DNA of 64,000 nt from Dehalococcoidales bacterium (GTDB taxonomy: Bacteria > Chloroflexota > Dehalococcoidia > Dehalococcoidales > RBG-16-60-22): the NCBI GenBank assembly GCA_034418415.1, contig DAOULS010000007.1, positions 4,018 through 68,017 of the forward strand, in the 5' to 3' direction. The notes beneath the pieces were generated by a model. That model made no database searches. It had not been told where the DNA came from and saw only the letters and a program-made list of their open reading frames with translations. Both the position numbers and the translations under genes were made by a program. This document shows positions 33,622 through 47,135 of the stretch, one piece after another. Every line of letters starts with the position of its first letter. The first letter of the stretch is position 1.

Positions 33622-34380
33622 TCAATGGGCTCTGAAACAGACCCTTTCCAGGCCGGTTAATGCCGCCACACTGGCCCCGGTAACGCCGAAGATAATCATC
33701 CTTTTACCCTGCGCAGCGGCCTTTTCCCGTATTTCATCGAAAGTTCCGTTAACGATGGTGCTGCTGGTAACGAGCAGCAGGTCGCACCACTCAATCAGCT
33801 TTCCGGTATCCGTTCTGCCGTCCCAGATTTGAGCCCCGTATTTCACGGTGCCGATATTATCGGGGTTAAGGTCCGTGCAGCGCACGTTATCACCACCAAA
33901 AGTCAAGACCAGATTTTCCAGGATAGCCGGCTGGAGTCCTATCAGACCGACTTTTACCTTGCCTGTATTGTTCAGAACATACTGCGCTATTTCTGCGGCG
34001 CATTCCTCCGGCTCCTCGTCGCGACAGTGCCTTGTCTCGTTAACCAGGCCCAGGTGCGCCGCGACCGCATTCAGGGTGGCAATGAAAATGGCCCTGTTGT
34101 CGCTCTTGTCCAGGCTTAATTCCAGGACATCGTTCAGCGAACCGGAAAAGTCGCTTGGTTTATCCGTAAAAGCCTGACCGTAACTGCCGCGGAATTCAGC
34201 CTCAATCATGACCTCTTTACCCTGCAGAAGAGGGAAGTCCTGCCGTCTTGGGCTGCCGATTGCCTGCTTGACCGACAGCGTCCCGATGGTAACCTTCACC
34301 GCCGTTTCGCCGAGATGCTTTTGGGCGGCAATCGACTGCAGTTTTTCTTTAGCTTCAATAATTACTGGTTTTGGTGCCAA
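33622..34380 (-). CDS. DUF364-like (Rossmann-like, 'putative heavy-metal chelation') protein
   Basis: 252 aa. ...KVGLIGLQPAILENL... and ...DLLLVTSSTIVNGTFDEI... parallel the second DUF364 protein at 45854..46582. It overlaps the ModA-like gene by 19 nt. Confidence 0.55.
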   Translation of the reverse strand: MAPKPVIIEAKEKLQSIAAQKHLGETAVKVTIGTLSVKQAIGSPRRQDFPLLQGKEVMIEAEFRGSYGQAFTDKPSDFSGSLNDVLELSLDKSDNRAIFIATLNAVAAHLGLVNETRHCRDEEPEECAAEIAQYVLNNTGKVKVGLIGLQPAILENLVLTFGGDNVRCTDLNPDNIGTVKYGAQIWDGRTDTGKLIEWCDLLLVTSSTIVNGTFDEIREKAAAQGKRMIIFGVTGASVAALTGLERVCFRAH

Positions 34381-35180
34381 TACTGGTCCACCTCCCAGGT
34401 ATTAGTAAAATAACCGTATTTTTGAAATATTTCCTTGCCTTCGGCCGAGGTTACGAAGTAGATGAACTCCCGTGCCAGACTGCCATTCTGGCAGTAAGAG
34501 GTCACCGCTATCTGCATTTCGCCGATACCGGTAAGCTGCTCGGGCGGCAGGAAAATTACCTCGATATCATCCGGTGCCTGGAGCTGGTAGAAATGCCAGA
34601 TTATCCCGGCATCGACCTGCCCCATGACCAGCGCCGTCAGCAGGCTGTCGGGTCGGGCGGCTTCGGTGACGATATTATTACCTATCTCCTCGGCCAGTCC
34701 CGCCTTGCTGAATATCTCGTAAGCGTATTTCCCCACTAGGGTCGTCTCCGCACGGGTGACACCGACCTGAATGCCTGGTTTGGCAAGGTCGGCTAGCGAC
34801 TGTATATTATGGGGATTGCCTTTTTGCACGGCGATGACCGGTATCATGTAGGCGACACTCTCGATTGTCGAGGCATCAACGGCATTTTTCGTTACCGCTG
34901 TCTCCATGAAACTCTGTTCCGGGGCTACATAAACGTCGCCGCTTTCCGAAAGCACCATCTGGTTCAATACCTCGCCACCGCCCCCGTAGGTGATTTCAAC
35001 GGTTATGCCGTGCAATTCCTTAAATTTTTGCACTATTTCATCCATGGCTGGCTTGGACCCGGCGGCGGCAAAAACGGTTATCGTACCATCTGGCGATGAG
35101 CATGACGCACTGAATCCCGTAACTGATGTTAATAACATGAGAAATGCCAGAATAATAACTATCTTTCTTTTCAGGAACAT
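34362..35180 (-). CDS. ModA/WtpA-like periplasmic binding lipoprotein (molybdate/tungstate type), no cognate permease or ATPase nearby
   Basis: Track ORF trimmed to MFLKRKIVIILAFLMLLTSVTGFSASCSS (lipobox). ...ITVFAAAGSKPAMDEIVQKFKELHGITVEITYGGGGEVLNQMV...DVYVAPEQ... resembles ModA-type binding proteins. Confidence 0.65.
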   Translation of the reverse strand: MFLKRKIVIILAFLMLLTSVTGFSASCSSPDGTITVFAAAGSKPAMDEIVQKFKELHGITVEITYGGGGEVLNQMVLSESGDVYVAPEQSFMETAVTKNAVDASTIESVAYMIPVIAVQKGNPHNIQSLADLAKPGIQVGVTRAETTLVGKYAYEIFSKAGLAEEIGNNIVTEAARPDSLLTALVMGQVDAGIIWHFYQLQAPDDIEVIFLPPEQLTGIGEMQIAVTSYCQNGSLAREFIYFVTSAEGKEIFQKYGYFTNTWEVDQYWHQNQ

Positions 35181-35235
35181 AATATAACCTCTTATAATCG
35201 GGATTTTAGCGGTACAGCTTAGGAAAAACTCGTCC

Positions 35236-35264
35236 ATTATAACAAAACGTTATATCGTTGTCAA
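35236..35264 (-). promoter_or_regulatory. Perfect consensus sigma70 promoter ahead of the ModA-like gene
   Basis: On the minus strand: TTGACA (35259-35264), 17 nt, TATAAT (35236-35241). Confidence 0.6.
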
Positions 35265-35329
35265 TATAGTATTACTAAGGATTCATTTAACAGCCCTGTA
35301 AGTAGACTATGATATCCTTGTGTTAACTT

Positions 35330-36073
35330 TTATTCGTGGTCCATGCCCCAGGCCTCGAAGACCTTCTTGTAGAGGTCCGGCTGGGGGAAGTCCGGCCGCA
35401 TCATCATCTGTTCGTGGGCGAACCCGGACTCGTTCCTGTCGAAATCGCGCAGGTTCTCCACCAGCGCGGGCAGCTTTTCCCGCGGCACCGAGAACATCAT
35501 CTCACCCTGGATAGTCAGCGCCCGGGCGTACTCGCCGGGGTCGGGCAGGTTAATCCAGTACTCGCCGTGCAGCATTACGGGCACGATGGAGTTAGAGCAG
35601 GAGAAGGGAAAGAAGTTGGATTTAACCAGTTGCCTCTCCTCCATTTTCAGCGAAAGGAGGATGATGCGGAGCTGGTTGGTATCGCAGTAGATAATCACGG
35701 CATCCGGCTCGAAGGCGGCTTTCTTCAGCGGGGCGGTAAGAATGCCGATGTACTTGCCGTACTCGAAACATTCGCCCGTGTTTTGGGCTCTAGCAGCCGG
35801 GTCATCGGGTATTTGTATCAGCCCGTAAGATATAACGGCGCCGGGGCACCAGTTGTCCTCTTTCAGCATGGCGACGGCAATCCTGTCCCGCCGCGATAGG
35901 GCAAATGCCTGGCATTGCGCCAGGTGGTAGCCGCGGTCTTTCTTGGGGCGGATGGCATCTTTGGGAATATCCGCTTCACTTTCCAGCATTTTCACGGCAA
36001 TGGGGGACGTGGATAGTCCAAGTATGTTCTCCAGTTCTTCTCCGTAGCGGTTATAGTCATTTATCGTCGGCAT
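35330..36073 (-). CDS. DUF169 family protein (paralog 1)
   Basis: 247 aa: MPTINDYNRYGEELENILGLSTSPIAVKMLESEADIPKDAIRPKKDRGYHLAQCQAFALSRRDRIAVAMLKEDNWCPGA.... The N-terminal half is clearly paralogous to 37929..38681. Confidence 0.6.
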   Translation of the reverse strand: MPTINDYNRYGEELENILGLSTSPIAVKMLESEADIPKDAIRPKKDRGYHLAQCQAFALSRRDRIAVAMLKEDNWCPGAVISYGLIQIPDDPAARAQNTGECFEYGKYIGILTAPLKKAAFEPDAVIIYCDTNQLRIILLSLKMEERQLVKSNFFPFSCSNSIVPVMLHGEYWINLPDPGEYARALTIQGEMMFSVPREKLPALVENLRDFDRNESGFAHEQMMMRPDFPQPDLYKKVFEAWGMDHE

Positions 36074-36096
36074 TTATGCCCTCCTGTAAATATTTA

Positions 36097-36651
36097 TTAT
36101 GAACGTATGGACTTTATTAGTTTAGCTACATTATTTTCCACCTCGACCAGGTCCTGCCGGTTGGGGCGTCCCCGGATATCGCCGAGCAGGCCTTTGGTGC
36201 TGTTTTCTAGAGATTTGTGGAACTCACCGACCACATACCATTCGGCAGCGACCTCGAAGCCGAGGTGCGCGAAAAACTGCCCGAGGTATTTCCCGGCGGG
36301 TATAGCTTCGTCGATGCCCGTGTGCGGGCCGGAATAGGTGATAAAAACCACGGCTTTTTTACCGGGTATTTTAGGGGCGCACGGTTTGATATCGCCGCGC
36401 TTTCTGTGGTCGTCCATCATTTCGCCGACTATTTTACGTACCGGTTCCGGCGGCGCCCACATGTATGACGGCGAGCCCATGAACACCAGGTCGTAATCGT
36501 ATAAGTTTACGGTACCGGCTTTGTGGATTTTCTTCATTGCCGGCTTGATTCCCTCACGCTCAAGCGCCTGTTGAATAGAGACCGCCACCTTTTCCGTATT
36601 GCCGGTAGCCGACCAGTAGTAAATCAGCACTTTAAGGTCGTTTTGTACCAT
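36097..36651 (-). CDS. Flavodoxin-like protein
   Basis: 184 aa. The N-terminal KVLIYYWSATGNTEKVA is an FMN phosphate-binding loop (S/T-x-T-G-N-T). Confidence 0.75.
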   Translation of the reverse strand: MVQNDLKVLIYYWSATGNTEKVAVSIQQALEREGIKPAMKKIHKAGTVNLYDYDLVFMGSPSYMWAPPEPVRKIVGEMMDDHRKRGDIKPCAPKIPGKKAVVFITYSGPHTGIDEAIPAGKYLGQFFAHLGFEVAAEWYVVGEFHKSLENSTKGLLGDIRGRPNRQDLVEVENNVAKLIKSIRS

Positions 36652-36669
36652 ATATTCCTCTCCTTTATA

Positions 36670-37848
36670 CTATCTCGAATACTTAATAAAGCCTTCGCCG
36701 TATAGGGATTCGTCCCGCTTTTTTCTACCGAGTCGATTCAGAAACTTAAAATAACTCAAGCCCTCGGTAAAGGCGCTATAACGGATAGCCCCGGGTTCGT
36801 GGCAGGTTTGACAGTATTCCGATTTGTCGATTCTTTTCCGCCAGGTTTGCGCCCTCGGACTTGCCCAGATTTCCCGGATGTCCTGTTGTTTCAAGTCCCC
36901 GACCGGTTCGGGCATGATTTCACAGGGATATATTTTACCATCAAAATCGATAAATAAATAGTTGAAAAGCGCCGTACAGACCCACTGCCTGCGGTTGCTG
37001 GCGAGAAACCGACGCGCCGTATTGTAGTAATGGCCTGTTTTCAATTCGTCGCGACTATAAAAGTCCAGCATCTTTTTGTATTCGGCGGGTGATAGCGCTA
37101 ATTCGTCCCGCCTGTTCAGGTTTCTAAACCTCTTTTCGGTAAAGAAAGCCGGAGAAATGATATAGAATAGGTCTCTGGTTCTGGCAAAGTCTAATATCTC
37201 ATCGAGGGCATCGATGTTTTGAGGCAGGATTGTTGTTTTTATACCTGAAATCAACTCGGGATATTCCTGCTTTAGTTCTGCGAGACGGTCGAGCGTTGCC
37301 GTAGCCATTTTGAAGGCGTTTTTTGTGCCCCTTATTTTATCGTGGGTTTCCCCGATACCGTCGATGGAAATAACACTGACCAGGTCGATATCCGTATCTT
37401 TTAAAACCCCTAATATCTCCCTGTAATTGGCTATGATTTTATCGGTCAGGAATCCGTTGGACGTGATAATAATGCTTCTCAATTTCGATAGAGAAGTGCT
37501 CTTAAGTTTAATTATCCCCAGCACGATATCAGTCAGGTCGTCCCTTAAATGCGGTTCGCCCCCGGTTAAGTCCAGCTCGACCAGTTCCGAGAACAGAGGA
37601 TTTGAGAGTAAATTGATAATTTCCGGCGCTGACAGCTCCTGGCTGACGATTTCCGGTTCTTCTCTTGCCCGCTGCCAGATATTGCACATGACGCAGTGGG
37701 AGTTGCAGCGGCCGGTGACCGCCAGACTTAAGACGGATGGCTTCAGGGGTCTGTTGATGCACCTGAAATAGCGGAACCTTAGAGCATTAAGCAGAAGCCT
37801 GCCAACGCTCTTATAGTAGCCGGTGTAGTTGCCCTTTTCCGGTTTCAA
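36670..37848 (-). CDS. Radical SAM enzyme with a Cys-rich (SPASM/twitch-like) C-terminal region
   Basis: 392 aa with a TTG start. It has CNSHCVMCNIW (CxxxCxxC), the GGEP motif (LTGGEPHLRDD) and C-terminal cysteines (...CTALFNYLFIDFDGKIYPCE...YCQTCHEPG...). Confidence 0.8.
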   Translation of the reverse strand: MKPEKGNYTGYYKSVGRLLLNALRFRYFRCINRPLKPSVLSLAVTGRCNSHCVMCNIWQRAREEPEIVSQELSAPEIINLLSNPLFSELVELDLTGGEPHLRDDLTDIVLGIIKLKSTSLSKLRSIIITSNGFLTDKIIANYREILGVLKDTDIDLVSVISIDGIGETHDKIRGTKNAFKMATATLDRLAELKQEYPELISGIKTTILPQNIDALDEILDFARTRDLFYIISPAFFTEKRFRNLNRRDELALSPAEYKKMLDFYSRDELKTGHYYNTARRFLASNRRQWVCTALFNYLFIDFDGKIYPCEIMPEPVGDLKQQDIREIWASPRAQTWRKRIDKSEYCQTCHEPGAIRYSAFTEGLSYFKFLNRLGRKKRDESLYGEGFIKYSR

Positions 37849-37928: not shown

Positions 37929-38681
37929 TCAGTCCTCTACGTCCAGGCCCCACTTTTTAAATAGCTCTTTGTAGAAGTCGGGACGGGGGAAGTCGGGGGT
38001 CATTATCATGTGCGACCAGTCATCCGGGTTCTGCTTCATCTCGGCGCTGCGTTTGACCCCTTCGGCCAGCTTGCCTATCTTGTCTTTGGGGACGGAGAAG
38101 ATAATCTCATCATCGCCGGCCCAGGCGCGGGAGTATTCGCCGGGGTCGGGGAGGGTAATCCGGTACTGCCCGTCCTGGAGTACAGGTAACACGGAGTACA
38201 CGCAGGAATCGATGGGGTCGAATTCGGACTTCACCGTTGTCTTTTCCACGAATTTAGGAACGCCGATCATCTCTCTTAATTGCGCGGTATTCGAATATAT
38301 CAGGACCATGTCCGGTTCGAAATTAGCCGTACTCAAGGGCGCGGTGACCATGCCGATATATTTGCCCAGTTCGAAACGGGGTAGAGAAGTAAGCGCGTCA
38401 ACAATCGGGTGGTGCGGGTCTTCCACCAGACCGTAAGCCATAAGCGGTGCCCAGCACCAGTGGTCTTCCTTCAACATGGCTATCGTCATTCCCTGCCGTC
38501 GCGTCATGGCGAAAGCCTGGCACTGCGCCAGGTGGTAGCCGCGGTCTTTTTTCGGCCGTATCGCCCCTTCCGGTATGTCCTCTTCCTTCTCCAGCATTTT
38601 CACGGCTATAGGAAACGTCTTCAGTTTCAGGTAGGTTTCGAGGTCTTTTCCCCATTGGTTATATTCTTTTATTGTGGGCAT
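37929..38681 (-). CDS. DUF169 family protein (paralog 2)
   Basis: 250 aa: MPTIKEYNQWGKDLETYLKLKTFPIAVKMLEKEEDIPEGAIRPKKDRGYHLAQCQAFAMTRRQGMTIAMLKEDHWCWAP... Confidence 0.6.
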   Translation of the reverse strand: MPTIKEYNQWGKDLETYLKLKTFPIAVKMLEKEEDIPEGAIRPKKDRGYHLAQCQAFAMTRRQGMTIAMLKEDHWCWAPLMAYGLVEDPHHPIVDALTSLPRFELGKYIGMVTAPLSTANFEPDMVLIYSNTAQLREMIGVPKFVEKTTVKSEFDPIDSCVYSVLPVLQDGQYRITLPDPGEYSRAWAGDDEIIFSVPKDKIGKLAEGVKRSAEMKQNPDDWSHMIMTPDFPRPDFYKELFKKWGLDVED

Positions 38682-38733: not shown

Positions 38734-39729
38734 TTACTTTGGCACGTTTTCGATGAGTTTTTGTGCAAATGAATTATACATACTGGAGTTGTATTGTTCA
38801 ATGTTTCCCTCGTCGCCGAGTTTAGCCAGCGCCGGGTCGATGGGCAGTTGCCCCAGCAGGGGAGCTTCGGCCGCCCGCGACATTTCCTCGCCGCGGCTTT
38901 TCCCGAAGAGCTCGATTTTCTTGTCTATCTCGGCCACATGCAGGTAGCTCATATTTTCGACGACGCCGAGGATGGACTTCCCCATCTGTCTCGCCATCTT
39001 GACCGCCTTGCGGACGACCATCGCCGTCAGGTCCTGCGGCGTGAAAACGATGATTATCCCCGATATCGGAATAGTTTGCAGTACAGTCAGCGGGGCGTCC
39101 GCCGTGCCCGGAGGCAGGTCGACAATCAGGTAGTCCAGGCTGCCCCAGAGCACCTCCTCCCAGAACTGCGTAATGGCGTGCCCGATAAGCGGTCCGCGCC
39201 AGATTACGGCATCGTCGTCACTCTGTAGCAGGAGATTGATGGACATTACCTCGATGCCGGAACGCGTTGGTACCGGCAAGAGGCCGCTTTCGCTCATGCC
39301 GGGACGACTATTGATGCCGAGCATCTTGGGTATGCTGGGGCCGGTTATATCGGCGTCCAGAATACCGACCTCATAGCCTTCGCGCTTTAGCGCCACTGCC
39401 GCCAGACTGGCAACCAGCGATTTGCCCACGCCGCCTTTACCGCTCATCACGGCGATAACATTCTTGATTTTATTCAGTTCTTTAGGTTTAATATCGGCGA
39501 AGTTAATGGCTACATCCTTCACACCATCCAGCTTTGCCACGTGTTCTTTAACGCTTTCCTGCAGCTGTTCCTGCGTTGTTTTCATCAAAGCCGCCGTAGC
39601 AATGGTAATATCGACCTTGCCGTCGGCCACGCTGACGTCCCGTACCAGGTTCATCTTTATAAGGCTGCGCTTGACATCGGGGACCAGCACTTTATCTAGT
39701 GTATTCTTGACTTCTTCCGGTGTTGGCAT
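38734..39729 (-). CDS. Mrp/NBP35/ApbC-family P-loop ATPase, cysteine-free variant
   Basis: 331 aa with a DUF59-like N-terminus, a deviant Walker A (VMSGKGGVGKS) and ...VDLPPGT.... Where Mrp proteins carry CxxC (ENMSxFxCPxCG), this one reads ENMSYLHVAEIDKK. I find no Cys anywhere in the translation. Confidence 0.8.
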   Translation of the reverse strand: MPTPEEVKNTLDKVLVPDVKRSLIKMNLVRDVSVADGKVDITIATAALMKTTQEQLQESVKEHVAKLDGVKDVAINFADIKPKELNKIKNVIAVMSGKGGVGKSLVASLAAVALKREGYEVGILDADITGPSIPKMLGINSRPGMSESGLLPVPTRSGIEVMSINLLLQSDDDAVIWRGPLIGHAITQFWEEVLWGSLDYLIVDLPPGTADAPLTVLQTIPISGIIIVFTPQDLTAMVVRKAVKMARQMGKSILGVVENMSYLHVAEIDKKIELFGKSRGEEMSRAAEAPLLGQLPIDPALAKLGDEGNIEQYNSSMYNSFAQKLIENVPK

Positions 39730-39752: not shown

Positions 39753-40304
39753 TTATTGTTTAACAAAGCTGCAGTTCATTTTTCCTTTTGCGGATAACTT
39801 AAAAAGACCCCCGCTCGTGATGCCGGATATTATCTCTTCTTCCTTGAGGTGATGGTCGTTAACGGATAAAACGCCTTCGGGCTTAAGTACTCTGTGCAAT
39901 TCTGCAAGGACTTCGTCTCGGTTCTCGAGTTCATGAAGAATATCGTAAAGCAGCACGATATCGATGCTTTCGTCCATCATTCCGGTATTGCAGTCGGAAG
40001 AGATAACCTGGACGTTGGAAAGTCCCTTTTTAGAAATCAAAGATTGTACCGTTTGTATCGCCATCGGATGTATGTCCAGTGCGTACAGCATGCCGCTATC
40101 GCCTATCAGTTTTATGACCGGCATGACGTAGCTGCCCGGACCGCAGCCGTAGTCGAGCACCCTTGAGCCCGGTTTAATCCCCACCTCCTTCAGGATACGG
40201 GAACGCGGCTTAAAAGCGTTCCTGATTCTAAAACCTAGGGACATAAATTTAAAGGCTAGGCTGGACTGGGTTTTGTGTTTATTTCCTGCTTCCTGTGTCG
40301 GCAT
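39753..40304 (-). CDS. Class I SAM-dependent methyltransferase
   Basis: 183 aa with motif I VLDYGCGPGSY and a post-I acidic residue (LYALD). Confidence 0.8.
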   Translation of the reverse strand: MPTQEAGNKHKTQSSLAFKFMSLGFRIRNAFKPRSRILKEVGIKPGSRVLDYGCGPGSYVMPVIKLIGDSGMLYALDIHPMAIQTVQSLISKKGLSNVQVISSDCNTGMMDESIDIVLLYDILHELENRDEVLAELHRVLKPEGVLSVNDHHLKEEEIISGITSGGLFKLSAKGKMNCSFVKQ

Positions 40305-40836
40305 AGGTATGCTCCTTGTGTTGATATGACGGCTTTCTCCTGATAACCCGTATCACTCCCAGGAAAATATTCATCCCCGGCACTCTTTGCATGTATCTAA
40401 CGTAATCGTCCCCGAACTTTTCCACCATGAGTTTATCTTCTTCTTTAATGCTCAAGTATATAACCACCGTGCCGATGACCCCCAGCACCGCGAAAAGCCA
40501 GTGCGGGTACCATAACAGCGTGGTAATGAATATTGAATATACGCCTCCCGTGTACTGCGGGTGTCTGATAACAGAATAGATGCCGGTATCCACCAGTTGA
40601 GTTGTGTGAACGAATGTTTTACCTTTCGGTACACCGCCCCGGCGCGGGAACATAATTATCGGGGCTAGAACCAGCGCAAACCCGAAAGCCCAGACAACCC
40701 ACCCGATAATGAACAGAGCAGGATGAAAATACGTATCCAGTACACCCGTCAGGACGAGGGGATTGGCCGGGAAGCAAGCAATCGCCAGCACGGTTATGAG
40801 AATCATCCATAGAATGTCTATTTTTGACCTTTTCAT
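40279..40836 (-). CDS. Isoprenylcysteine carboxyl methyltransferase (ICMT)/phospholipid methyltransferase-family membrane protein
   Basis: 185 aa, multi-TM, with ...GIYSVIRHPQYTGGVYSIFITTLLW... (the RHPxY signature). Confidence 0.7.
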   Translation of the reverse strand: MKRSKIDILWMILITVLAIACFPANPLVLTGVLDTYFHPALFIIGWVVWAFGFALVLAPIIMFPRRGGVPKGKTFVHTTQLVDTGIYSVIRHPQYTGGVYSIFITTLLWYPHWLFAVLGVIGTVVIYLSIKEEDKLMVEKFGDDYVRYMQRVPGMNIFLGVIRVIRRKPSYQHKEHTYADTGSRK

Positions 40837-40856: not shown

Positions 40857-41255
40857 CTAGTGCAATCTCTCCATCAGATTGGGCAATTTCCCCTGCAGAT
40901 ACAGGTTGACCGCCTCGTCGATATCCGCAATGTCGGTGACAACTGTTTCGATGCCCCGGTCTTTAAAGCTTTCATAGGCGCCCCACCCCATGCCCCCGGC
41001 GATGAGAACCTGGCAGTCCTCGATGCTTTGTGCCATAGCGGCGTGCCTCGACTGCGCGCCGGAGTCATAGCCGTGCCTTTCGCCCGGCGCCGCCTCGTGA
41101 TGCTGACCGCCTTGGAAGGTATGGTGCCCTGCCTTGTTTCTCGTTTCTTTGTTTATAATTTTACCGTCTTCCGCCGTTACTATCACATACAGCGACGCCC
41201 TCCCGAAATGCTGGCTGATAGTGGTCCCGTCATCAGATACTGCAGCAATTTTCAT
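40857..41255 (-). CDS. NifB/NifX-like (dinitrogenase FeMo-cofactor-binding fold) domain protein
   Basis: 132 aa: MKIAAVSDDGTTISQHFGRASLYVIVTAEDGKI...VLIAGGMGWGAYESFKDRGIE... It has a His/Gly-rich internal insert (HHTFQGGQHHEAAPGERHGYD). Confidence 0.7.
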   Translation of the reverse strand: MKIAAVSDDGTTISQHFGRASLYVIVTAEDGKIINKETRNKAGHHTFQGGQHHEAAPGERHGYDSGAQSRHAAMAQSIEDCQVLIAGGMGWGAYESFKDRGIETVVTDIADIDEAVNLYLQGKLPNLMERLH

Positions 41256-41270: not shown

Positions 41271-41591
41271 TTACTTTACTATCAAATCGTATTTTGGCCG
41301 GCCTTTGTTCATGGAAATTTTCACCGATACCTGCTTTCCCTCGGCCAGATATTTTTCCGACTCTATACGTAGTCGTTCCGACTCCGGCGACTGCAGGAAT
41401 TTCACCAGGGCCTCATATTTGCGCTGAATATCATTATCAATCCCCCCCTCGCGCAGCATCAGCATCAGGCAGCTGTTCAGTTCATGCTCGCTAAGGCATT
41501 TCAGGCATTTGCCCGATATTTCGTTGGTTGAGTACTTCGGCTCGAGGTTGAAGGATTCTGTTTTACTCTTTTTCAGTTCATCATTACGCAT
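41271..41591 (-). CDS. Hypothetical protein
   Basis: 106-aa ORF in operon register, overlapping the CoA-binding gene by 19 nt. No family recognised and the start is uncertain. Confidence 0.4.
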   Translation of the reverse strand: MRNDELKKSKTESFNLEPKYSTNEISGKCLKCLSEHELNSCLMLMLREGGIDNDIQRKYEALVKFLQSPESERLRIESEKYLAEGKQVSVKISMNKGRPKYDLIVK

Positions 41592-41953
41592 ACGCTGTGC
41601 ACTACCTTCATGTTATTTTCGTTACAATAGGCTATCGCCGCCTCGCTCTCCGAACCGGGCTGGAGCCAGATACGGTTCAGTCCCAGTTCCTTGCACTGTT
41701 TCAGTATTTCTTCGGTCACCCCCGGCGGAACGACGAAGTCGACGACATCCACTTTAACCGGGATTTCAGCCAGGCCGGCGTAACAGGGCAGGCCTTCTAT
41801 CTCTTTCAGTCTGGGGTTCACCGGATAGACTTCATAGTCGCGCTTTTTCAGATTTTTAACAATCTGGTTGCCGTATTTCTCCGGATTGTCCGTAGCCCCG
41901 ATTACCGCGAATTTCTTCTGGGCCATAAATTCTTTAATCAGGTCCTGCATCAT
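41573..41953 (-). CDS. CoA-binding domain protein (YccU-like)
   Basis: 126 aa: ...KKFAVIGATDNPEKYGNQIVKNLKKRDYEVYPVNPRLKEIEGLPCY...VDFVVPP...RIWLQPGSES... Confidence 0.75.
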   Translation of the reverse strand: MMQDLIKEFMAQKKFAVIGATDNPEKYGNQIVKNLKKRDYEVYPVNPRLKEIEGLPCYAGLAEIPVKVDVVDFVVPPGVTEEILKQCKELGLNRIWLQPGSESEAAIAYCNENNMKVVHSVCVMMN

Positions 41954-41962: not shown

Positions 41963-42199
41963 CTAGTTCCTGCGGCAGTGGCCTCCGTCTGAACAGGGCG
42001 GTTTCTCGCACCGCTCTTCACGACCGCAGCAGGTCTTGCCGGAATTACTCGTGTTTTTTAACAGGCTGGGAGACGTTATCAGTCTGGTCATTTCACTCCC
42101 GCATTCTGGGCATTCAGGCTCTTTGGGACTGAAGAAGCCCTGCACCAGCACTTCGGAGACATGCCCGCAGGACTTGCACTTATATTCGTAAATCGGCAT
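41963..42199 (-). CDS. FmdB-family zinc-ribbon protein with a Cys-rich tail
   Basis: Track ORF trimmed to MPIYEYKCKSCGHVSEVLVQGFFSPKEPECPECGS...GKTCCGREERCEKPPCSDGGHCRRN (78 aa). Confidence 0.75.
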   Translation of the reverse strand: MPIYEYKCKSCGHVSEVLVQGFFSPKEPECPECGSEMTRLITSPSLLKNTSNSGKTCCGREERCEKPPCSDGGHCRRN

Positions 42200-42212: not shown

Positions 42213-43067
42213 TTACAGCTTATTAACAATTTTGTCCCATAATGCCGCAATTTCATGAGAGAGGCCGTTTTTGGAATACTCGACTACCGGTACTCCCTTT
42301 ATCATTGCCTCGGTAACGACATTATCGTAAGGAATCCTTGATACTGTTCCCATTCCCTGCTTTTTGCAGTAGTCCTCTATTTTATCGGCGTTGCTTTCAT
42401 TGATATCGTATTTGTTGATGCAGACCAGCGCCGGAACACCGAAGTGCCGGCAGACCTCGTGTACCCTTTCCAGGTCGTGTATGCCGGATAGCGTGGGCTC
42501 CGTAACCAGCAGCGCCATGTCGGCCCCTGAAAGTGACGATATCACCGGGCAGCCGATGCCGGGCGGGCCGTCGCTGATGATATAGTCGGCGTTCTTTTTC
42601 TCCGCCAGTTCCCTGGCTTTCTGCCTGACCAGCGCCACCAGCTTGCCGGAGTTTTCCTCGGCGATGCCCAGTCGCGCGTGGACCAAATCTCCGTACCTGG
42701 TTTTGGAGATAAACCAGTGCCCCGCCATGTTGTCCGTCATCGTAATCGCGTCGGCGGGGCATATGTGCGAGCAGAACCCGCAGCCCTCGCAGGAAATTGG
42801 GTCGACTTTATAGTCTTTGATTGCGTTGAAGCGGCATAATTCCTGGCAAAGTCCGCATTGCGTGCATTTATCTTCATCGATAGTAGCGACCTGCCCGCTC
42901 CAGAACTCGTTTTTCTCTTGAGTATCCGGCTGTAGCAGCAGGTGAAGGTCGGCGGCATCGACATCGCAGTCCGCCAGCACCTTGTTCTTTGCCAGCGAGG
43001 CAAAAGAACCGACGATGCTGGTCTTGCCCGTGCCTCCTTTACCGCTTAAGACTACTACTTCTTTCAT
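42213..43067 (-). CDS. MinD/ParA-superfamily P-loop ATPase with an inserted 2x[4Fe-4S] ferredoxin domain
   Basis: 284 aa with LSGKGGTGKTS, then CTQCGLCQELC and CEGCGFCSHICP inserted between the P-loop and ...DGPPGIGCPV.... Confidence 0.85.
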   Translation of the reverse strand: MKEVVVLSGKGGTGKTSIVGSFASLAKNKVLADCDVDAADLHLLLQPDTQEKNEFWSGQVATIDEDKCTQCGLCQELCRFNAIKDYKVDPISCEGCGFCSHICPADAITMTDNMAGHWFISKTRYGDLVHARLGIAEENSGKLVALVRQKARELAEKKNADYIISDGPPGIGCPVISSLSGADMALLVTEPTLSGIHDLERVHEVCRHFGVPALVCINKYDINESNADKIEDYCKKQGMGTVSRIPYDNVVTEAMIKGVPVVEYSKNGLSHEIAALWDKIVNKL

Positions 43068-43905
43068 CTACCAGTTCCTGTATTCGTTCGAAGAGCGACG
43101 CAAACCTTTCCTGCCACTGGGGCATTCCTTCTGCCAGCGTGATGCCCCTGGAATATAGTCGCGCTATTTCACTGTCCAGCGGGATAGTTAGCAATACCGG
43201 GACATTTTGTTCGCGACAGTATTCTTCAAGTTTCCCTTGATTGCCGCCGGCGCGGTTGATAACAATCCCGCATGGAATCTTAAGTTTCTTGACCGTTTCC
43301 ACCGCCAGGGTGAGGTCGTTTAGCCCGAAGGGCGTGGGTTCGGTGACCAGCAGGCAGAAATCGCTGTCCTTGACGGATTCCACCACAGGGCAGGAAGTCC
43401 CCGGCGATACGTCGATAATAACGGTGTTATCGGGGCTGACCTTTTCCTTGACCTTCCTGATAACCGGGGTCGGCATGGCCTCCCCCGTATTCAGCCTCCC
43501 CTGGACGAAATCAATGTTGCCGGCCTGACCGGATTCCACCACGCCGATTATCATATCCTCTTCGGCGATTGCCTTTTCCGGGCAAAGGTAGCTGCAGGCG
43601 CCGCAGCCGTGGCAGAGGTTCGCCAGAACCAGCACGTTCTTGGGTAAAACAGCGATGGCGTTATAAGCGCAGATGTCGCTGCACTTGCCGCAAAACGTGC
43701 ACTTCGTCTCGTCGACATGCGGTACGGGTATGGCTACCGCTTCCTTCTTGTTGATAACCGGCTTGAGAAACAGGTGGTCGTTCGGCTCCTCGACGTCACA
43801 ATCGACGATTTGCAGCCTGCATTTATCTTTCAGCGAGACCGCCAGACTGGTTGCTACCAGGGTCTTGCCGGTGCCGCCTTTACCGCTGGCAACCGAGATT
43901 ATCAT
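43039..43905 (-). CDS. MinD/ParA-superfamily P-loop ATPase with an inserted 2x[4Fe-4S] ferredoxin domain (paralog)
   Basis: 288 aa with ASGKGGTGKT, CTFCGKCSDIC, CHGCGACSYLCP and ...DVSPGTSCPV.... It overlaps its paralog by 29 nt. Confidence 0.85.
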   Translation of the reverse strand: MIISVASGKGGTGKTLVATSLAVSLKDKCRLQIVDCDVEEPNDHLFLKPVINKKEAVAIPVPHVDETKCTFCGKCSDICAYNAIAVLPKNVLVLANLCHGCGACSYLCPEKAIAEEDMIIGVVESGQAGNIDFVQGRLNTGEAMPTPVIRKVKEKVSPDNTVIIDVSPGTSCPVVESVKDSDFCLLVTEPTPFGLNDLTLAVETVKKLKIPCGIVINRAGGNQGKLEEYCREQNVPVLLTIPLDSEIARLYSRGITLAEGMPQWQERFASLFERIQELVDERSSSLKR

Positions 43906-43906: not shown

Positions 43907-44104
43907 CTAGCCTCTTATCATTTTAGCGCCGCATTTGGGGCAGCTCATGTTATAACAGGGCGTGCCTCTCTGGTGGGGCGCCCTTGCGCCGCAGCTGGGG
44001 CATACGCAGTCGCCGCCGGGCCCCAGACCGGGACGGTTGCCTCCCATCCTGCCCCCTCTTTGACCACGACCGGTCGGCGGGCCGGTGCCGTCTCCTCTTG
44101 GCAT
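43907..44104 (-). CDS. DUF5320 family protein (Gly/Arg-rich N-terminus plus zinc ribbon)
   Basis: 65 aa: MPRGDGTGPPTGRGQRGGRMGGNRPGLGPGGDCVCPSCGARAPHQRGTPCYNMSCPKCGAKMIRG. MPRGDGTGP is the hallmark start of the family as I recall it. Confidence 0.7.
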   Translation of the reverse strand: MPRGDGTGPPTGRGQRGGRMGGNRPGLGPGGDCVCPSCGARAPHQRGTPCYNMSCPKCGAKMIRG

Positions 44105-44176: not shown

Positions 44177-44641
44177 TTAGTAAGTATGTAATTCAGGATG
44201 GGTTTTAGCATGCTCGACAATGGGACCTTTGGCAATCATGGCTAACCCGACATAGCTTCCCCGTCCCGAAAGTAAATTATCTCCCGGCTTGATGCCGTAG
44301 GCGTCAAGTGTTTGACGACCGAGTATTATCATATTATTTTCTCGGATTTTAACCCAGCAGTATTTTCTCTTCTTGAACTCGATGGGCTTTCCCTCATCGA
44401 TTTGAAAGTTATTCAGGTCCGGATATACTGTGAAAACACCACCCAGAGATGATTGCTCCAACATTTGCTTGCGGGCAATTATAAAGCCTCCCGAGGTTTT
44501 GCTCCCGGATAGAAGGATTACATTCATACCCGGAATTAGTCTGTATTCTTCTACGGCTTCGGCGGGGATAACGATACCCCCCTTCTCGCTGATTCGCGAC
44601 CAGCCGAAAACGTACTTGCCTCCCTTTACTAATTGCGGCAT
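44177..44641 (-). CDS. Hypothetical protein with two AbrB/SpoVT-like swapped-hairpin motifs
   Basis: 154 aa. GGIVIPAEAVEEYRLIPGMNVILL and MIILGRQTLDAYGIKPGDNLL resemble AbrB/MazE-type DNA-binding repeats. This is a weak call. Confidence 0.4.
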   Translation of the reverse strand: MPQLVKGGKYVFGWSRISEKGGIVIPAEAVEEYRLIPGMNVILLSGSKTSGGFIIARKQMLEQSSLGGVFTVYPDLNNFQIDEGKPIEFKKRKYCWVKIRENNMIILGRQTLDAYGIKPGDNLLSGRGSYVGLAMIAKGPIVEHAKTHPELHTY

Positions 44642-44683: not shown

Positions 44684-45160
44684 TTATTGCCCGCCTATAC
44701 CTCCGCCACCTCCCATTCCTCTGCCGCCACCCATACCTCTTCCACCGCCCATGCCTCGGCCACCTCCCATTCCTCTACCTCCACCCATGCCTCTGCCGGA
44801 GCCGAAATGTGCATTGACATTGGGTTGGGAACCGGCTTTCAGCTTGTCAGTCTTGAAGTTTTCTATGGCATCCTTAACTTTACCCGTAACTCCGGTGATG
44901 ATTTTTATACCGGCGCCCGAAAGCACCTGGTAGGCGTTGGGTCCGCAGTTGCCGGTGAGTACTACCTCGACGCCTTTACCGGCGATGTTCTGCGCCGCCG
45001 ATATCCCTGCGCCTCCCCCCGCCATCATCGAAGAATTTTCCAGCGCCTCAAATTCCATTGTGTCCGGGTCGACGATAATGAAATACTGGCACCGCCCGAA
45101 ACGCGGGTCGATTTCTGCATCCAGATTAGGGGCAGTCGATGTTACTACAATTTTCATCAC
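44684..45160 (-). CDS. NifB/NifX-like domain protein with a C-terminal (GRGMGG)x5 tail
   Basis: 158 aa: MMKIVVTSTAPNLDAEIDPRFGRCQYFIIVDPDT...VVLTGNCGPNAYQVLSGAGIKII..., then GSGRGMGGGRGMGGGRGMGGGRGMGGGRGMGGGGGIGGQ. Confidence 0.75.
   Translation of the reverse strand: MMKIVVTSTAPNLDAEIDPRFGRCQYFIIVDPDTMEFEALENSSMMAGGGAGISAAQNIAGKGVEVVLTGNCGPNAYQVLSGAGIKIITGVTGKVKDAIENFKTDKLKAGSQPNVNAHFGSGRGMGGGRGMGGGRGMGGGRGMGGGRGMGGGGGIGGQ
44710..44799 (-). repeat. Five tandem 18-nt coding repeats (GRGMGG units)
   Basis: Plus-strand units are cctcccattcctctgccg, ccacccatacctcttcca, ccgcccatgcctcggcca, cctcccattcctctacct and ccacccatgcctctgccg. The DNA differs only at synonymous positions, so the peptide repeat is perfect. 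Confidence 0.9.
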
Positions 45161-45463
45161 TTACTCCTTGCTTGAAGTTTTACTCTTCTCCAGTTCCTTT
45201 ATCCGGCGCTCGATGTCCGCCAGCTGCTGCCTGGTGGCTTCCGCCTGGCTCTTCAAAAGGTCGAGCTCTTCGCCTTGAGCAGGCGCCGCTGTAAATGGAG
45301 CATTGGCATCGTAGGGGAACGACGTTCTCGATAAGCCCGGATAGGCACAGCGGGGTAAGCCGCCTCTGCCTCTGCCAACATAAGGATAAGGGGGAGAACT
45401 CCCTCTGAATCCAAATCCGGCGCCGCCTCTGCCTCCAGACCCTCTACCCATTCCGTAAACCAT
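45161..45463 (-). CDS. DUF5320 family protein (Gly/Arg-rich N-terminus plus C-terminal coiled coil)
   Basis: Track ORF trimmed to the ATG at 45463 (AAGGAGGTG upstream): MVYGMGRGSGGRGGAGFGFRGSSPPYPYVGRGRGGLPRCAYPG...LDLLKSQAEATRQQLADIERRIKELEKSK. Confidence 0.65.
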   Translation of the reverse strand: MVYGMGRGSGGRGGAGFGFRGSSPPYPYVGRGRGGLPRCAYPGLSRTSFPYDANAPFTAAPAQGEELDLLKSQAEATRQQLADIERRIKELEKSKTSSKE

Positions 45464-45522: not shown

Positions 45523-45849
45523 TCAGCCGCAATACAGCGGCAGGTTTTTCTCGCCGGTTAATAAATGAAGGTGCCCGCTGTTGCAGACAGGGCATTTACG
45601 GTTCTTATCTTCCGTGGGACTCTTGGGGATAGGCATGCTGAACTTGTACTTGCATTGCTGGCATTCATAGTCCCACATTTTGGTTTCAAAGATGTTCCTG
45701 CCGGAGCCCAGCGGCGCCCAGGGCGGGGCGTCCATAATATCAACACCGCAGCACGCCGGGCATTTTATTTTCTTATCTGGAGAAGGACTGTCGGGGACAG
45801 CATGGTCGAACACATTCAAACACTGCTTGCACAAAAACCGACGTTCCAT
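45523..45849 (-). CDS. Tandem zinc-ribbon protein
   Basis: 108 aa with two CxxC...CxxC units (CKQC...CPAC and CQQC...CPVC). Confidence 0.6.
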   Translation of the reverse strand: MERRFLCKQCLNVFDHAVPDSPSPDKKIKCPACCGVDIMDAPPWAPLGSGRNIFETKMWDYECQQCKYKFSMPIPKSPTEDKNRKCPVCNSGHLHLLTGEKNLPLYCG

Positions 45850-45853
45850 AATA

Positions 45854-46582
45854 CTAGCCGTCCTTTCTCATGGTCAGTAATTCAAGGCCTGATATTTGAC
45901 GGAATGTCGCTCCTTGACTCACATAGCGGAGCACCGCTTCACTGTCGATTACCTTTGTCCCGGATACGGCGTCGATGCCGTAGTCGAAGAGGACCGGCGA
46001 TAACGGGGCTGTCCCTCCGAGGATGACGACGTACGCTGCCGGACTGCATAAGCCGAGTAGATATTCAAGGGTATGGTTGGTAAAAGCCGTCCCGGTGATG
46101 CCGATAACGTCCGCCTTGGGGAGATATTTGGCGGACTCCTTTTCCGGGAGGTCGTTTTCCTGCGGATTTTTCTCGATTACCCAGAGCTCTTTGGTGGTTT
46201 GCCGCAGCCCCTTCACAAACGGGAAATGCCCGATTATTGCCACCCTTTTTCCTTCGCCCTTGCTGGCAATAAGGTCGCCGGCGTTTAGCTTCACACAGCG
46301 CTTTTCGTCTATGTCAACCAGTGAGTTTATGGTGGCCATGCCGATAGCCGCTTCAACGGCACTGCGTGAATTAGCCATACCAGCGAGTTCCCGGGCGTCT
46401 TTTTCCAGCAGCCGGCCGGCGTCGGCAACCGGCGACTTTTTGTGGTGCGGTCCCTGGTCGTGGGGCGTGGAAGCCAGCCCGCACCGTCCGGTCACTACCG
46501 CCGTCTGGAAAGGCCCCATGCGTATGTCTTTAACCGGGGTCCCGTATTCCAGCGTTGCCAGTATGTCGTTGATTATTTTCAT
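45854..46582 (-). CDS. DUF4213/DUF364 protein (Rossmann-like, 'putative heavy-metal chelation')
   Basis: 242 aa: ...VKDIRMGPFQTAVVTGRCGLAST..., ...RVAIIGHFPFVKGL..., ...DVIGITGTAFTNHTLEYLL... Confidence 0.65.
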   Translation of the reverse strand: MKIINDILATLEYGTPVKDIRMGPFQTAVVTGRCGLASTPHDQGPHHKKSPVADAGRLLEKDARELAGMANSRSAVEAAIGMATINSLVDIDEKRCVKLNAGDLIASKGEGKRVAIIGHFPFVKGLRQTTKELWVIEKNPQENDLPEKESAKYLPKADVIGITGTAFTNHTLEYLLGLCSPAAYVVILGGTAPLSPVLFDYGIDAVSGTKVIDSEAVLRYVSQGATFRQISGLELLTMRKDG

Positions 46583-46597
46583 GGTAAAAATGCCTTA

Positions 46598-47071
46598 CTA
46601 TGATATATCTCTGGTGCTTTTACCGCGTCCTCTGCCTCTGCCCCTTGTGCTCTGGCTGTTTCCAAGCGAAGGTACCGGTTCCACATCGGGCAAACGGCAA
46701 ACTGGGCAGAGTTCCGGCGGCACCCCGACCGGCTTGTCCAGTTCCCATTCGTGTCCCCGGTGACAGCGGAAACGACGCCAGCTCATCTCAAAATTACCGC
46801 CCTCGATCCTGATAGCCTTACCGTTAAGAATTACATCAGCCAACTTTTGCCGCGCCGAGGCCAGTACCCGCTGGAAGGTAGGGCGGGAGATGTTCATCTT
46901 TTTGGCTCCCTCCTCCTGCTCCAGGCCCTCCAGGTCTTTAAGTCGTATCGCTTCAGCCTCTTCAACGGACAAGCGCACTTCAGTCAGTTCTCTTAGCGGG
47001 GCTCCGGCTGGCTTGAAATAGGTTACGTCAGGCACATATTCTACACGGCGGTATTTACGCGGTCGGGACAT
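46598..47071 (-). CDS. DUF134 (UPF0251) putative transcriptional regulator with a C-terminal zinc-ribbon/RG extension
   Basis: 157 aa: MSRPRKYRRVEYVPDVTYFKPAGAPLRELTEVRLSVEEAEAIRLKDLEGLEQEEGAKKMNISRPTFQRVLASARQKLADVILNGKAIRIEGG, a close match to my memory of the DUF134 consensus. It continues ...CHRGHEW...CPVC...RGRGRGRGK. Confidence 0.8.
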   Translation of the reverse strand: MSRPRKYRRVEYVPDVTYFKPAGAPLRELTEVRLSVEEAEAIRLKDLEGLEQEEGAKKMNISRPTFQRVLASARQKLADVILNGKAIRIEGGNFEMSWRRFRCHRGHEWELDKPVGVPPELCPVCRLPDVEPVPSLGNSQSTRGRGRGRGKSTRDIS

Positions 47072-47084
47072 ATTCCCTCCTGAA

Positions 47085-47135
47085 TTATGAGCATATGTTC
47101 ATAATAATGATATAAGTTGGCTGATATTTTGTCAA
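47085..47135 (-). promoter_or_regulatory. Promoter and palindromic operator of the DUF134-led operon
   Basis: On the minus strand: TTGACA (47130-47135), 17 nt, TATCAT (47107-47112). Then comes the 20-bp imperfect palindrome TTATGAaCATATGcTCATAA (47085-47104, 18 of 20 symmetric) over the expected start site. Confidence 0.5.

Follow-up and report, generated by a model that had tools for sequence, protein, structure and literature searches.

Positions 33622-47071 of a 64,000-nt stretch of a Dehalococcoidales metagenome-assembled genome (contig DAOULS010000007.1 of assembly GCA_034418415.1; the whole stretch is called the window below) are occupied by 22 tightly packed minus-strand open reading frames (ORFs), g01 to g22. 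With a probability that we put at roughly 60%, this run consists of two units. The first would be the Dehalococcoidales orange-protein (ORP) cluster, composed of two DUF134-controlled modules that handle anionic metal-sulfide species, and the second an independent modA-DUF364 pair. A preliminary description of the region had considered the DUF134/NifX-like/MinD-ferredoxin core to be without assigned function, which has to be corrected since this core is the published ORP complex cluster of Desulfovibrio (PMC6345978, PMC8359166). Its central theme, the carriage of metal-sulfide clusters by NifX-fold proteins and SIMIBI ATPases, appears to be right. Judged by homology and architecture, g01-g13 together with g16 are the Dehalococcoidales version of a named system and not a system of a new kind. 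These genes are:

46598..47071, minus strand: g01, DUF134/UPF0251 DNA-binding protein with a sigma-70 region-4-like helix-turn-helix (PF02001, 90.8 bits; cut-off 27)
45854..46582, minus strand: g02, DUF4213+DUF364 protein, Rossmann-like, of the S-adenosylmethionine (SAM)-lyase/cyclase family, accessory (Pfam; PDB 3L5O, E 1.5e-20)
45523..45849, minus strand: g03, tandem FmdB-type zinc ribbon (tandem Zn_ribbon_8) with 10 Cys, module B (Pfam/NCBIfam)
45161..45463, minus strand: g04, DUF5320 protein with a Gly/Arg/aromatic-rich N-terminal half and a C-terminal coiled coil (PF17253, 34.3 bits)
44684..45157, minus strand: g05, ORP homologue with an IssA-like cationic (GRGMGG)n tail (PF02579, 88 bits; PDB 2WFB)
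44177..44641, minus strand: g06, 154-amino acid protein of no family, lineage-specific insert (no Pfam or PDB match)
43907..44104, minus strand: g07, small Gly/Arg-rich protein of 65 amino acids in the Orp5 position (CxCPxCG...H...PC...CPxCG motif)
43039..43905, minus strand: g08, MinD-type deviant Walker-A ATPase with a 2x[4Fe-4S] ferredoxin insert, paralogue a (CbiA/ParA and two Fer4 motifs)
42213..43067, minus strand: g09, second MinD-ferredoxin ATPase, paralogue b (CbiA/ParA and two Fer4; overlaps g08 by 29 nt)
41963..42199, minus strand: g10, FmdB-type zinc ribbon with a Cys-rich tail (PF09723, 59.3 bits)
41573..41953, minus strand: g11, small CoA_binding_2 protein, accessory; its homologue closes module A in locus L169 (Pfam)
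41271..41591, minus strand: g12, AF_2379-family helical protein (PF27306, weak; public annotation)
40857..41255, minus strand: g13, second NifX-fold protein, with a His-rich insert (PF02579, 60.6 bits)
38734..39729, minus strand: g16, DUF59 and Mrp/NBP35 ATPase, Cys-free (best family model NF041136 MrpORP)

In the D. vulgaris ORP complex, Orp3 and Orp4 are ferredoxin-ATPases, Orp9 is MrpORP, which hands Fe-S clusters to Orp3/Orp4, and Orp8 is the orange protein, homologous to carriers of Mo-Cu-S clusters (PMC6345978, PMC8359166); Orp5 is small and a homologue of it binds a [2Fe-2S] cluster (PMC6345978). Counterparts of these components of D. vulgaris Hildenborough and D. alaskensis G20 can be recognized in the window. 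The orange-protein homologue is g05, whose best match among solved structures is the D. gigas ORP (PDB 2WFB, E 3.1e-21 over residues 1-114), followed by MTH1175 (E 9.5e-18). Similar in architecture to Orp3 and Orp4, g08 and g09 are adjacent paralogous MinD-type ATPases (35-37% identity) with two [4Fe-4S] motifs each; they share as invariant features the SGKGGTGKT sequence, two CxxCxxCxxxC motifs, C36 and C172. The latter two cysteines lie in a DCDV motif in the switch I region and in a GxxCPV motif just past Walker B/switch II, respectively, and since C172 falls at the position of a NifH cluster ligand this might hint at an additional metal site between the subunits. The small Cys-rich g07 immediately precedes the ATPase pair, at the place that orp5 takes in Desulfovibrio (Dde_3197; PMC8359166), a likeness by position and motif description; 6 Cys and 1 His of its motif are conserved in an alignment of 33 bacterial and archaeal homologues.

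The Mrp ATPase and the Di-Nase domain protein of Desulfovibrio also have their equivalents, g16 and g13. The best family model for g16 is NF041136 MrpORP, with 317.6 bits over model positions 1-241 compared to 226 bits for ApbC; the score falls short of the MrpORP cut-off (450), and the Di-Nase portion is a separate gene, g13, which aligns to positions 319-365 at the Di-Nase end of the same model (E 2.6e-11). Besides being split, the protein differs from Desulfovibrio MrpORP in having lost the CXXC motif and all other cysteines. The absence of any cysteine in g16 had already been noted in the preliminary description and is confirmed here, NMSYLHVAEIDKK standing in for NMSGFxCPxCG. This motif is replaced in all Dehalococcoidia loci that we compared and retained in nearly all other ORP-linked Mrp proteins. 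The NifX fold of g13 is itself interrupted by a His-rich insert, AGHHTFQGGQHHEAAPGERHGYDSGAQSRH, a possible metal-binding loop.

Like the Desulfovibrio system, the cluster is confined to strict anaerobes, but its organization and control are different. The orp genes of Desulfovibrio form two divergent operons dependent on sigma-54, OrpR and IHF; they are expressed only at very low redox potential, which the sigma-54 regulator OrpR senses via a [4Fe-4S] cluster (PMC6345978, PMC8359166). The arrangement here is that of one predicted operon, read in one direction from a sigma-70-type promoter and including the gene for a DUF134 protein. As further differences, the orange-protein homologue bears a (GRGMGG)n tail, and the operon contains in addition DUF364, DUF5320, zinc-ribbon, CoA-binding, AF_2379, methyltransferase, DUF169, radical SAM/SPASM and flavodoxin genes. 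With NifX, NafY and NifB-C the system has in common the NifX fold, by which anionic metal-sulfide clusters are bound non-covalently, and with NifH and BchL the combination of a SIMIBI deviant Walker-A ATPase with Fe-S clusters. It is nevertheless not a nitrogenase assembly pathway, as already stated in the preliminary description: nifHDK, nifEN, nifB and other nif genes are absent from the window, and g13 remains far below the nifX (TIGR02663, 17.1 bits, cut-off 112) and nifB (TIGR01290, 20 bits, cut-off 343) models. Unlike a NifH-type Fe protein with its one bridging cluster, the two ATPases carry inserted ferredoxin domains.

The core is conserved far beyond the Dehalococcoidales. A search with an alignment of both ATPase paralogues brought up 80 loci, which represent 15 or more lineages of bacteria and archaea, among them Dehalococcoidia, Desulfobacterota, Ignavibacteria, Zixibacteria, Omnitrophota, Clostridia, Bathyarchaeia, methanogens and Heimdallarchaeota; homologue lists for the individual window proteins covered close relatives only (at least 67% identity). 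As minimum counts, the ATPase pair occurs in the a-then-b order in 75 of the 80 loci and a NifX-like gene in 73, followed by Mrp (40), a Zn_ribbon_8 zinc ribbon (32), NifU_N (32, a gene that the window lacks), a g07-like gene directly upstream of the ATPase pair (31), DUF5320 (30 as a separate gene, 37 counting NifX/ORP fusions), DUF134 (25) and a 255-amino acid radical SAM protein (21). Much less frequent are DUF364 (9), the CoA-binding protein (4), the methyltransferase (4), ICMT (2), and DUF169, flavodoxin and radical SAM/SPASM (1 each); ModA was found in none (0/80). Thus, the 22 genes do not make up a single conserved system: the order of the core is kept across phyla, but DUF169, flavodoxin, radical SAM/SPASM, ICMT, methyltransferase, CoA-binding protein and ModA are rare or absent beside it. 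DUF169 in particular can be dismissed as a general ORP partner, as ORP genes were present in only 2 of 34 DUF169-anchored loci of at least 6 kb. Other recurrent neighbours in the 80 loci are metallo-beta-lactamase-fold proteins, ARMT1/DUF89, Fur, CGGC proteins and sigma-54 activators. The latter were seen in 15 loci, mainly of Desulfobacterota and usually in place of DUF134; both occur together in only 3 loci.

Within the Dehalococcoidales the operon can be decomposed into two modules. On a single 2.31-Mb contig (GCA_041300405.1; L168 and L169) two DUF134 paralogues head separate operons 240 kb apart. Module A comprises DUF5320, ORP, a 65-amino acid protein, the ATPase pair, a zinc ribbon and a CoA-binding protein. 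Module B comprises a tandem zinc ribbon, NifX and DUF59-Mrp, with DUF169 further downstream; the L168 operon also has AhpC fragments, MoaE and a HapK-like gene ahead of DUF169. Seen against this arrangement, the long operon of the window is by its gene content a merger of both, with module A nested between g03 and g12. The module A part would be made up of DUF5320, the ORP/IssA-like carrier, the Orp5-like protein, the ATPase pair, the zinc ribbon and the CoA-binding protein, and the module B part of the tandem zinc ribbon, AF_2379, the His-rich NifX-fold protein, the Cys-free DUF59-Mrp protein and DUF169 with flavodoxin and radical SAM. The remaining genes of the long operon are:

40279..40836, minus strand: g14, PEMT/ICMT-type membrane methyltransferase, lineage-specific (Pfam/NCBIfam)
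39753..40304, minus strand: g15, class I SAM methyltransferase, ArsM/UbiE-like, accessory (Pfam/NCBIfam; also in L003, L015 and L088)
37929..38681, minus strand: g17, DUF169 paralogue a, module-B accessory, Dehalococcoidales only (Pfam)
36670..37848, minus strand: g18, radical SAM/SPASM protein of no defined subfamily, lineage-specific (under all NCBIfam cut-offs)
36097..36651, minus strand: g19, flavodoxin-like protein (Pfam/NCBIfam; stays beside DUF169 in L003 and L011)
35330..36073, minus strand: g20, DUF169 paralogue b with 53% identity to g17, closing the long operon (Pfam)

Related gene orders are found at several other loci. A g03-type gene directly follows DUF134 in the module-B operons of L168, L093 and L101, the order being DUF134, tandem zinc ribbon, NifX and DUF169 in L093 and DUF134, tandem zinc ribbon, AF_2379, Mrp and DUF169 in L101. 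DUF169 follows DUF134-led operons in L088, L089, L093, L101 and L168, a g02-type DUF364 gene comes after DUF134 in several Dehalococcoidia relatives, and in L003 and L011 the slot of g18 is taken by a Pyr_redox_2 gene. Two metagenome contigs, L088 and L089 (DUF169 88-91% identical), lack both ferredoxin-ATPase genes and g13 while keeping DUF134, DUF364, zinc-ribbon, DUF5320, ORP, g07-like, CoA-binding, AF_2379, methyltransferase, Mrp, DUF169 and radical SAM genes. They represent either a natural deletion variant or a misassembly.

A candidate for the control element of the long operon lies immediately upstream of g01, and a second promoter precedes g21:

47107..47135, minus strand: promoter P1 of the long operon, upstream of g01 (TTGACA-17-TATCAT, 11/12 matches; second-best site in the region)
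47084..47105, unstranded: candidate DUF134 operator, a 22-nt palindrome ATTATGAGCAT-ATGTTCATAAT, between the -10 box and the g01 ribosome-binding site
35236..35264, minus strand: promoter P2, preceding g21 (perfect TTGACA-17(TG)-TATAAT)

Allowing up to 3 mismatches, the motif ATGAGCATATGCTCAT occurs once in the 64-kb window (0.13 expected) and 27 times in the 80 loci (1.14 Mb), compared to 1-11 matches, about 4 on average, in shuffled sequences. Nearly all of the 27 matches are found just in front of a gene for a DUF134, NifX, MinD, zinc-ribbon or DUF364 protein, and the motif directly precedes DUF134 genes in Dehalococcoidia, Zixibacteria, Ignavibacteria, Desulfobacterales and Smithella; in archaea, loci have TGCACATATGTGCA-like variants of the palindrome. 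Of five matches in 585 kb of DUF169-anchored loci, four precede DUF134. On the 2.31-Mb contig the palindrome immediately follows the -10 box in both DUF134 operons, and the P1-type promoter-operator layout recurs in the relatives L003, L011, L168 and L169. Since the palindrome follows the -10 box and is present only once in the window, DUF134 looks like an autorepressor, and g01 is likely to act in this way. A regulatory role of DUF134, as assumed in the preliminary description, is likely and now backed by a conserved candidate operator. A C..H/C..CPxC motif and, after it, an Arg-Gly (RG)-rich tail are common to the DUF134 homologues from such clusters; in g01 the C-terminal C..H..CPxC extension precedes a tail with an isoelectric point (pI) of 12, and both are kept in homologues. 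The NCBIfam equivalog PRK04217 missed its cut-off for g01 (72.6 bits, cut-off 115). Three loci without a DUF134 gene (L047, L060 and L028) still have the palindrome before MinD or zinc-ribbon genes, which suggests that DUF134 is encoded elsewhere in those genomes. Our literature searches returned only incidental mentions of DUF134, UPF0251, COG1342 and DUF5320, and no functional study of DUF134.

P1 and P2 are the only strong minus-strand promoter matches of a consensus scan, and no convincing minus-strand terminator was found within the 22-gene run. The dense packing and the consensus promoter of P2 described previously are both borne out. With longest-ORF starts, the gaps between genes range from -73 to +92 nt. 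Starts were reset to 45463 for g04 and 42199 for g10, as in the public gene calls for the same sequence, and to 35180 for g21 because the promoter overlaps its longest-ORF start, again in agreement with the public call. All genes then overlap or are separated by at most 80 nt with the sole exception of the 149 nt between g20 and g21, which contain P2 (35264-35236). P2 has its own distinct palindrome, TATAAC-5-GTTATA at 35238-35254, so that a DUF134 operator shared by both promoters can be discarded. The region is accordingly best described as two predicted transcription units, g01-g20 transcribed from the promoter at 47135 and g21-g22. One might object that the run reflects nothing but compaction in a streamlined Dehalococcoidales genome, where unrelated small operons without a common function follow one another on the leading strand. 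Indeed, the same-strand packing is a regional feature that continues for another 15 kb, down to position 17992, through unrelated nitrogen-metabolism genes, and co-directionality alone is thus no evidence for one unit; moreover, the tail genes are not conserved with the core, and gene content differs widely among relatives. We nevertheless consider this explanation quite unlikely, as the gene order of the core is conserved across bacterial and archaeal phyla and protein fusions link three families. Furthermore, one operator-bearing promoter stands ahead of 20 genes with gaps of at most 80 nt and with no strong internal promoter or terminator, and DUF169 repeatedly follows DUF134-led operons within the order.

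A second trait that connects the proteins of the ORP cluster is the presence of cationic Gly/Arg-rich segments (pI 11-12) in g01, g04, g05 and g07 and also in their homologues. The RG tail of g05 noted previously could be verified: residues 109-158, with a (GRGMGG)5 repeat, contain 54% Gly and 10% Arg, no acidic residues, and have a pI of 12.0. Similar 'HFGMG(RGMG)n' tails are common on ORP-type NifX proteins of other phyla. The tail is encoded by an 18-nt tandem repeat of ~5.4 copies (44697-44798). It is longer (165 amino acids) in another assembly, and in a public assembly the place is taken by a run of N with no gene called (L002, 2088-2585; L001, 8643-9264); these differences between assemblies indicate that the array is either variable in copy number or hard to assemble. 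The ORP domain, GR repeats and DUF5320 coiled coil are fused in 9 loci, an ORP domain with a GR tail and the g07-type Cys motif in L026, and a ferredoxin with a DUF5320-like tail in L006. Through these fusions g04, g05 and g07 are joined in a common functional module.

The tails recall IssA of P. furiosus, a protein with the same NifX fold and a cationic Gly-rich tail that binds thioferrate (PMC5524996); MTH1175 was placed in the IssA clade by Vaccaro et al. As in IssA and the mesophilic 'IssX' clade, an N-terminal IPR003731/NifX-fold domain is followed in g05 by an unstructured Gly-rich cationic tail of pI 12, four Cys ligands are not required, and the proteins are found in sulfide-exposed anaerobes. 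On the other hand, the g05 tail is a regular GRGMGG repeat with almost no prolines or aromatics, the best match of g05 among solved structures is an ORP and not a Thermococcales protein, and, unlike IssA as covered in the IssA papers, g05 sits in an operon with ATPases. By analogy, the Gly/Arg segments may parallel the electrostatic binding of an anionic iron-sulfide polymer proposed for IssA.

The gene context at related loci also points to iron. In L003, L004 and L015 genes for FeoAB and a DtxR-type repressor immediately precede the cluster, which itself includes an encapsulated-ferritin-like gene; Fur is present in 8 loci and FeoB or DtxR in others. IssA homologues of M. voltae go up together with FeoB and DtxR on pyrite (PMC8516115). 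Taken together with the way in which IssA homologues react to the supply of iron and sulfur, these neighbours single out iron sulfide as the most probable species. What has been described so far concerns homology, architecture, conservation, fusions and the operator motif; what follows on the ligand, the direction of its flow, the part played by the ATPases and the mode of sensing is interpretation. The NifX-fold domains and Gly/Arg-rich segments would bind anionic inorganic metal-sulfide species non-covalently, most likely iron sulfide in the form of thioferrate-like material or Fe-S cluster fragments, and possibly thiometallates. The heterodimeric ferredoxin-ATPases might couple ATP hydrolysis to electron transfer in order to load, reduce or release these species, which the Mrp and NifX pair could then pass onward. 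DUF134 would bind the palindrome after the -10 box and repress the operon, its own Cys/His motif and RG tail being the probable sensor. A more daring version, which we regard as rather doubtful, is that the Gly/Arg segments form a shared electrostatic 'address' recruiting members of four unrelated families, the ORP/NifX carrier, DUF5320, the Orp5-like protein and DUF134, onto one anionic inorganic polymer, a thioferrate-like iron sulfide or thiometallate chain, as a membrane-less metal-sulfide body. The ferredoxin-ATPase pair would load or reductively unload this body, and the repressor tail and Cys/His motif would read its fill state and set transcription via ATGAGCATATGCTCAT. If true, many anaerobic bacteria and archaea would share a regulatory circuit that senses an inorganic polymer.

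For the Desulfovibrio ORP complex, whose role is described as 'still unclear', cell division is one hypothesis (PMC6345978, PMC8359166). Applied to the window, the MinD-like ATPases and their partners would make up a positioning or cell-division device in which the Fe-S clusters serve only as redox sensors. The D. vulgaris data lend themselves to this idea, as inactivation of orpR causes morphological defects, MrpORP is located at a cell pole and MinD-like amphipathic C-terminal helices were reported for Orp3/Orp4 (PMC6345978, PMC8359166), and by modelling g08 and g09 appear closest in fold to archaeal MinD. However, the fold search with the g08 AlphaFold2 model (predicted local distance difference test, pLDDT, 78.6) did not discriminate among MinD, ATPase-type HypB, BchL, ApbC and NifH, which match equally well, and the ferredoxin insert occurs in no solved protein. 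The MinD models are far from their cut-offs (TIGR01968, 25-54 bits versus 212.9; TIGR01969, 56-72 versus 201.75). MinC, MinE, FtsZ and other division genes are not among the recurrent neighbours in the 80 loci, where it is NifX-fold, Mrp, NifU and Cys-rich proteins that constantly recur, and close relatives drop the ATPase pair yet keep the rest of the operon. A role in positioning or division is very unlikely in our opinion.

The two genes of the short unit are:

34362..35180, minus strand: g21, ModA-type molybdate/tungstate-binding protein with a signal peptide (PF13531, 182.8 bits; TIGR01256)
33622..34380, minus strand: g22, divergent DUF364 protein (PF04016, 37.8 bits; overlaps modA by 19 nt)

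The ModA-like label of g21 was correct, its score with the TIGR01256 modA model (74.8 bits) exceeding the 62.5 cut-off, and a PDB search with the g22 sequence gave no match. An association of DUF364 with modABC is known (PMC2954201; bioRxiv 10.1101/2024.03.05.583561), and as in the Methanococcus maripaludis cluster MMP_RS02670-02685 the ModA-type gene is translationally coupled to the DUF364 gene. In contrast to such clusters, adjacent permease and ATPase genes are missing, modB and modC being absent from the whole window, and the DUF364 protein is highly divergent. Given its own promoter without a DUF134 operator, we describe g21-g22 as an independent pair, putatively for molybdenum/tungsten (Mo/W) binding.

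This has consequences for the pathway initially envisaged, in which the 22 genes acquire Mo/W via ModA, chelate it by DUF364 and build or carry a heterometal (Mo/W-Cu/Fe-S) cofactor on NifX-fold carriers for some metalloenzyme. Such a scheme is not without foundation: the orange protein of D. gigas contained an [S2MoS2CuS2MoS2]3- cluster when isolated (PMC6345978), g21 exceeds the modA cut-off, DUF364 is tied to Mo/W transporters and shows cofitness with nifH in M. maripaludis (PMC2954201; bioRxiv 10.1101/2024.03.05.583561), the g02-type DUF364 gene directly follows DUF134 in several Dehalococcoidia loci, and MoaE occurs in the L168 module-B operon. The link to Mo/W acquisition is weak, however, when the neighbourhoods are considered. 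ModA is found at none of the 80 ORP loci and DUF364 at only 9, the modA-DUF364 pair has its own perfect promoter with a different palindrome, no molybdo- or tungstoenzyme is encoded next to the cluster, and the recurrent neighbours (NifU_N, FeoB, DtxR, Fur) are iron and Fe-S related. Moreover, g02 and g22 are too divergent for mutual detection, and the one characterised DUF364 enzyme is a cyclase of a SAM derivative and not a chelatase (PMC12930334). A riboswitch responding to the molybdenum cofactor (Moco), the tungsten cofactor (Wco) or another ligand was not found in the 149-nt gap or the rest of the window, where Rfam gave only 5S rRNA and tRNA. We therefore consider the single Mo/W pathway unlikely and iron-sulfide handling more likely than Mo/W cofactor assembly.

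A number of points weigh against our interpretation of the long operon as a metal-sulfide-handling ORP cluster. Orange proteins have yielded a single cofactor on isolation, a Mo-Cu-S cluster and not iron sulfide (PMC6345978), and the Desulfovibrio authors themselves proposed a role in cell division. The g05 tail contains 2% aromatics as opposed to about 20% in IssA (PMC5524996), and the IssA paradigm is itself debated, as thioferrate-like iron was still formed in P. furiosus without IssA (PMC8219758). Lacking any cysteine, g16 cannot carry a cluster in the way MrpORP does. The retention of the operon without the ATPase pair in L088 and L089 means that the parts are separable, and two genes frequent at other loci, NifU_N and the one for a small radical SAM protein, are missing from the window. 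The 80 loci are the best-scoring relatives and not a random sample, and the neighbour counts, obtained by phmmer from window proteins against six-frame ORFs of the loci, are lower bounds. Finally, protein functions in this lineage are read from genes and models, and the operon structure is deduced from consensus scans.

The family assignments of the preliminary description were nearly all confirmed by profile hidden Markov model searches (Pfam/NCBIfam), with two exceptions. The first is g07, which is not a Pfam DUF5320 protein but has a Gly/Arg-rich N-terminus and the conserved motif of 6 Cys and 1 His. The second is g06, where the AbrB-like label goes back to a 24-residue AbrB/MazE-like stretch that is sub-threshold (E 0.006); none of the 80 loci has a g06 homologue, which was seen solely in L002, L088 and L089, the closest relatives. 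The helical protein g12 is weakly similar to the knotted helical dimer HP0242 (E 0.04; E 6e-4 to a tandem chimera of HP0242), and the ORP-type genes of A. fulgidus are AF2378-AF2380 (PMC3949148). Invariant residues of the DUF169 proteins g17 and g20 include H50, C54, C76 and C160. Sequence searches with g06 and g17 against the PDB gave no match, and the DUF169 AlphaFold2 model (pLDDT 84.8, predicted template-modelling score 0.80) had no Foldseek neighbour in the PDB (best E 0.28); the predicted fold appears to be without a solved representative. The sole functional mention of DUF169 that we found in the literature, a paper on a Desulfovibrio 'nitrate cluster', concerns another gene context and gave no lead.

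Outside the 22 genes, a tRNA-Val(CAC) gene (47213-47289, minus strand) lies 78 nt upstream of the -35 box of the cluster and has its own weak promoter-like site (47337-47309), and a 5S rRNA gene (1053-1170, plus strand) is located at the start of the window. The minus-strand block below the cluster (17992-33437) is devoted to nitrogen assimilation and unrelated to the present finding: it encodes a ferredoxin and a glutamate synthase of archaeal type in split form (Pyr_redox_2, GATase_2, Glu_synthase, GXGXG), a 244-amino acid protein whose sole domain is Trans_reg_C, and after it Amt, P-II and CarAB. At 50287-53541 a LysR regulator gene is divergent from genes for a corrinoid-binding protein and a URO-D/MtaA-like methyltransferase, which looks like a corrinoid-dependent methyl-transfer module. 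Two large ORFs had no Pfam match at E 1e-5, at 12118-13389 (plus strand, 423 amino acids) and 17992-20202 (minus strand, 736 amino acids).

The wider question behind this system is how strict anaerobes, living amid sulfide and equipped with very large Fe-S proteomes, take up, store and allocate the iron and sulfur that these require. To our knowledge, IssA is the only proposed sulfide-based iron store, and the ORP complex has had no agreed function since its description. The comparison made here suggests that the ORP and IssA stories concern one widespread gene system, in which ORP-fold carriers bear IssA-like tails. New in this context are the DUF134-linked palindrome, the Gly/Arg segments predicted in four families, the protein fusions, the Cys-free Mrp protein, the split into two modules and the separate promoter of the putative modA-DUF364 unit. 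The palindrome also provides a concrete regulatory element, a candidate operator for the DUF134/UPF0251 family, and DUF134 would take the place of OrpR outside the Desulfobacterota. Further work can be guided by natural dissections of the system, namely the Cys-free Mrp, the operons without the ATPase pair and the occurrence of modules A and B apart in a related genome. Dehalococcoidales rely on many Fe-S and corrinoid enzymes, and for these organisms the operon is probably a central metal-homeostasis operon.

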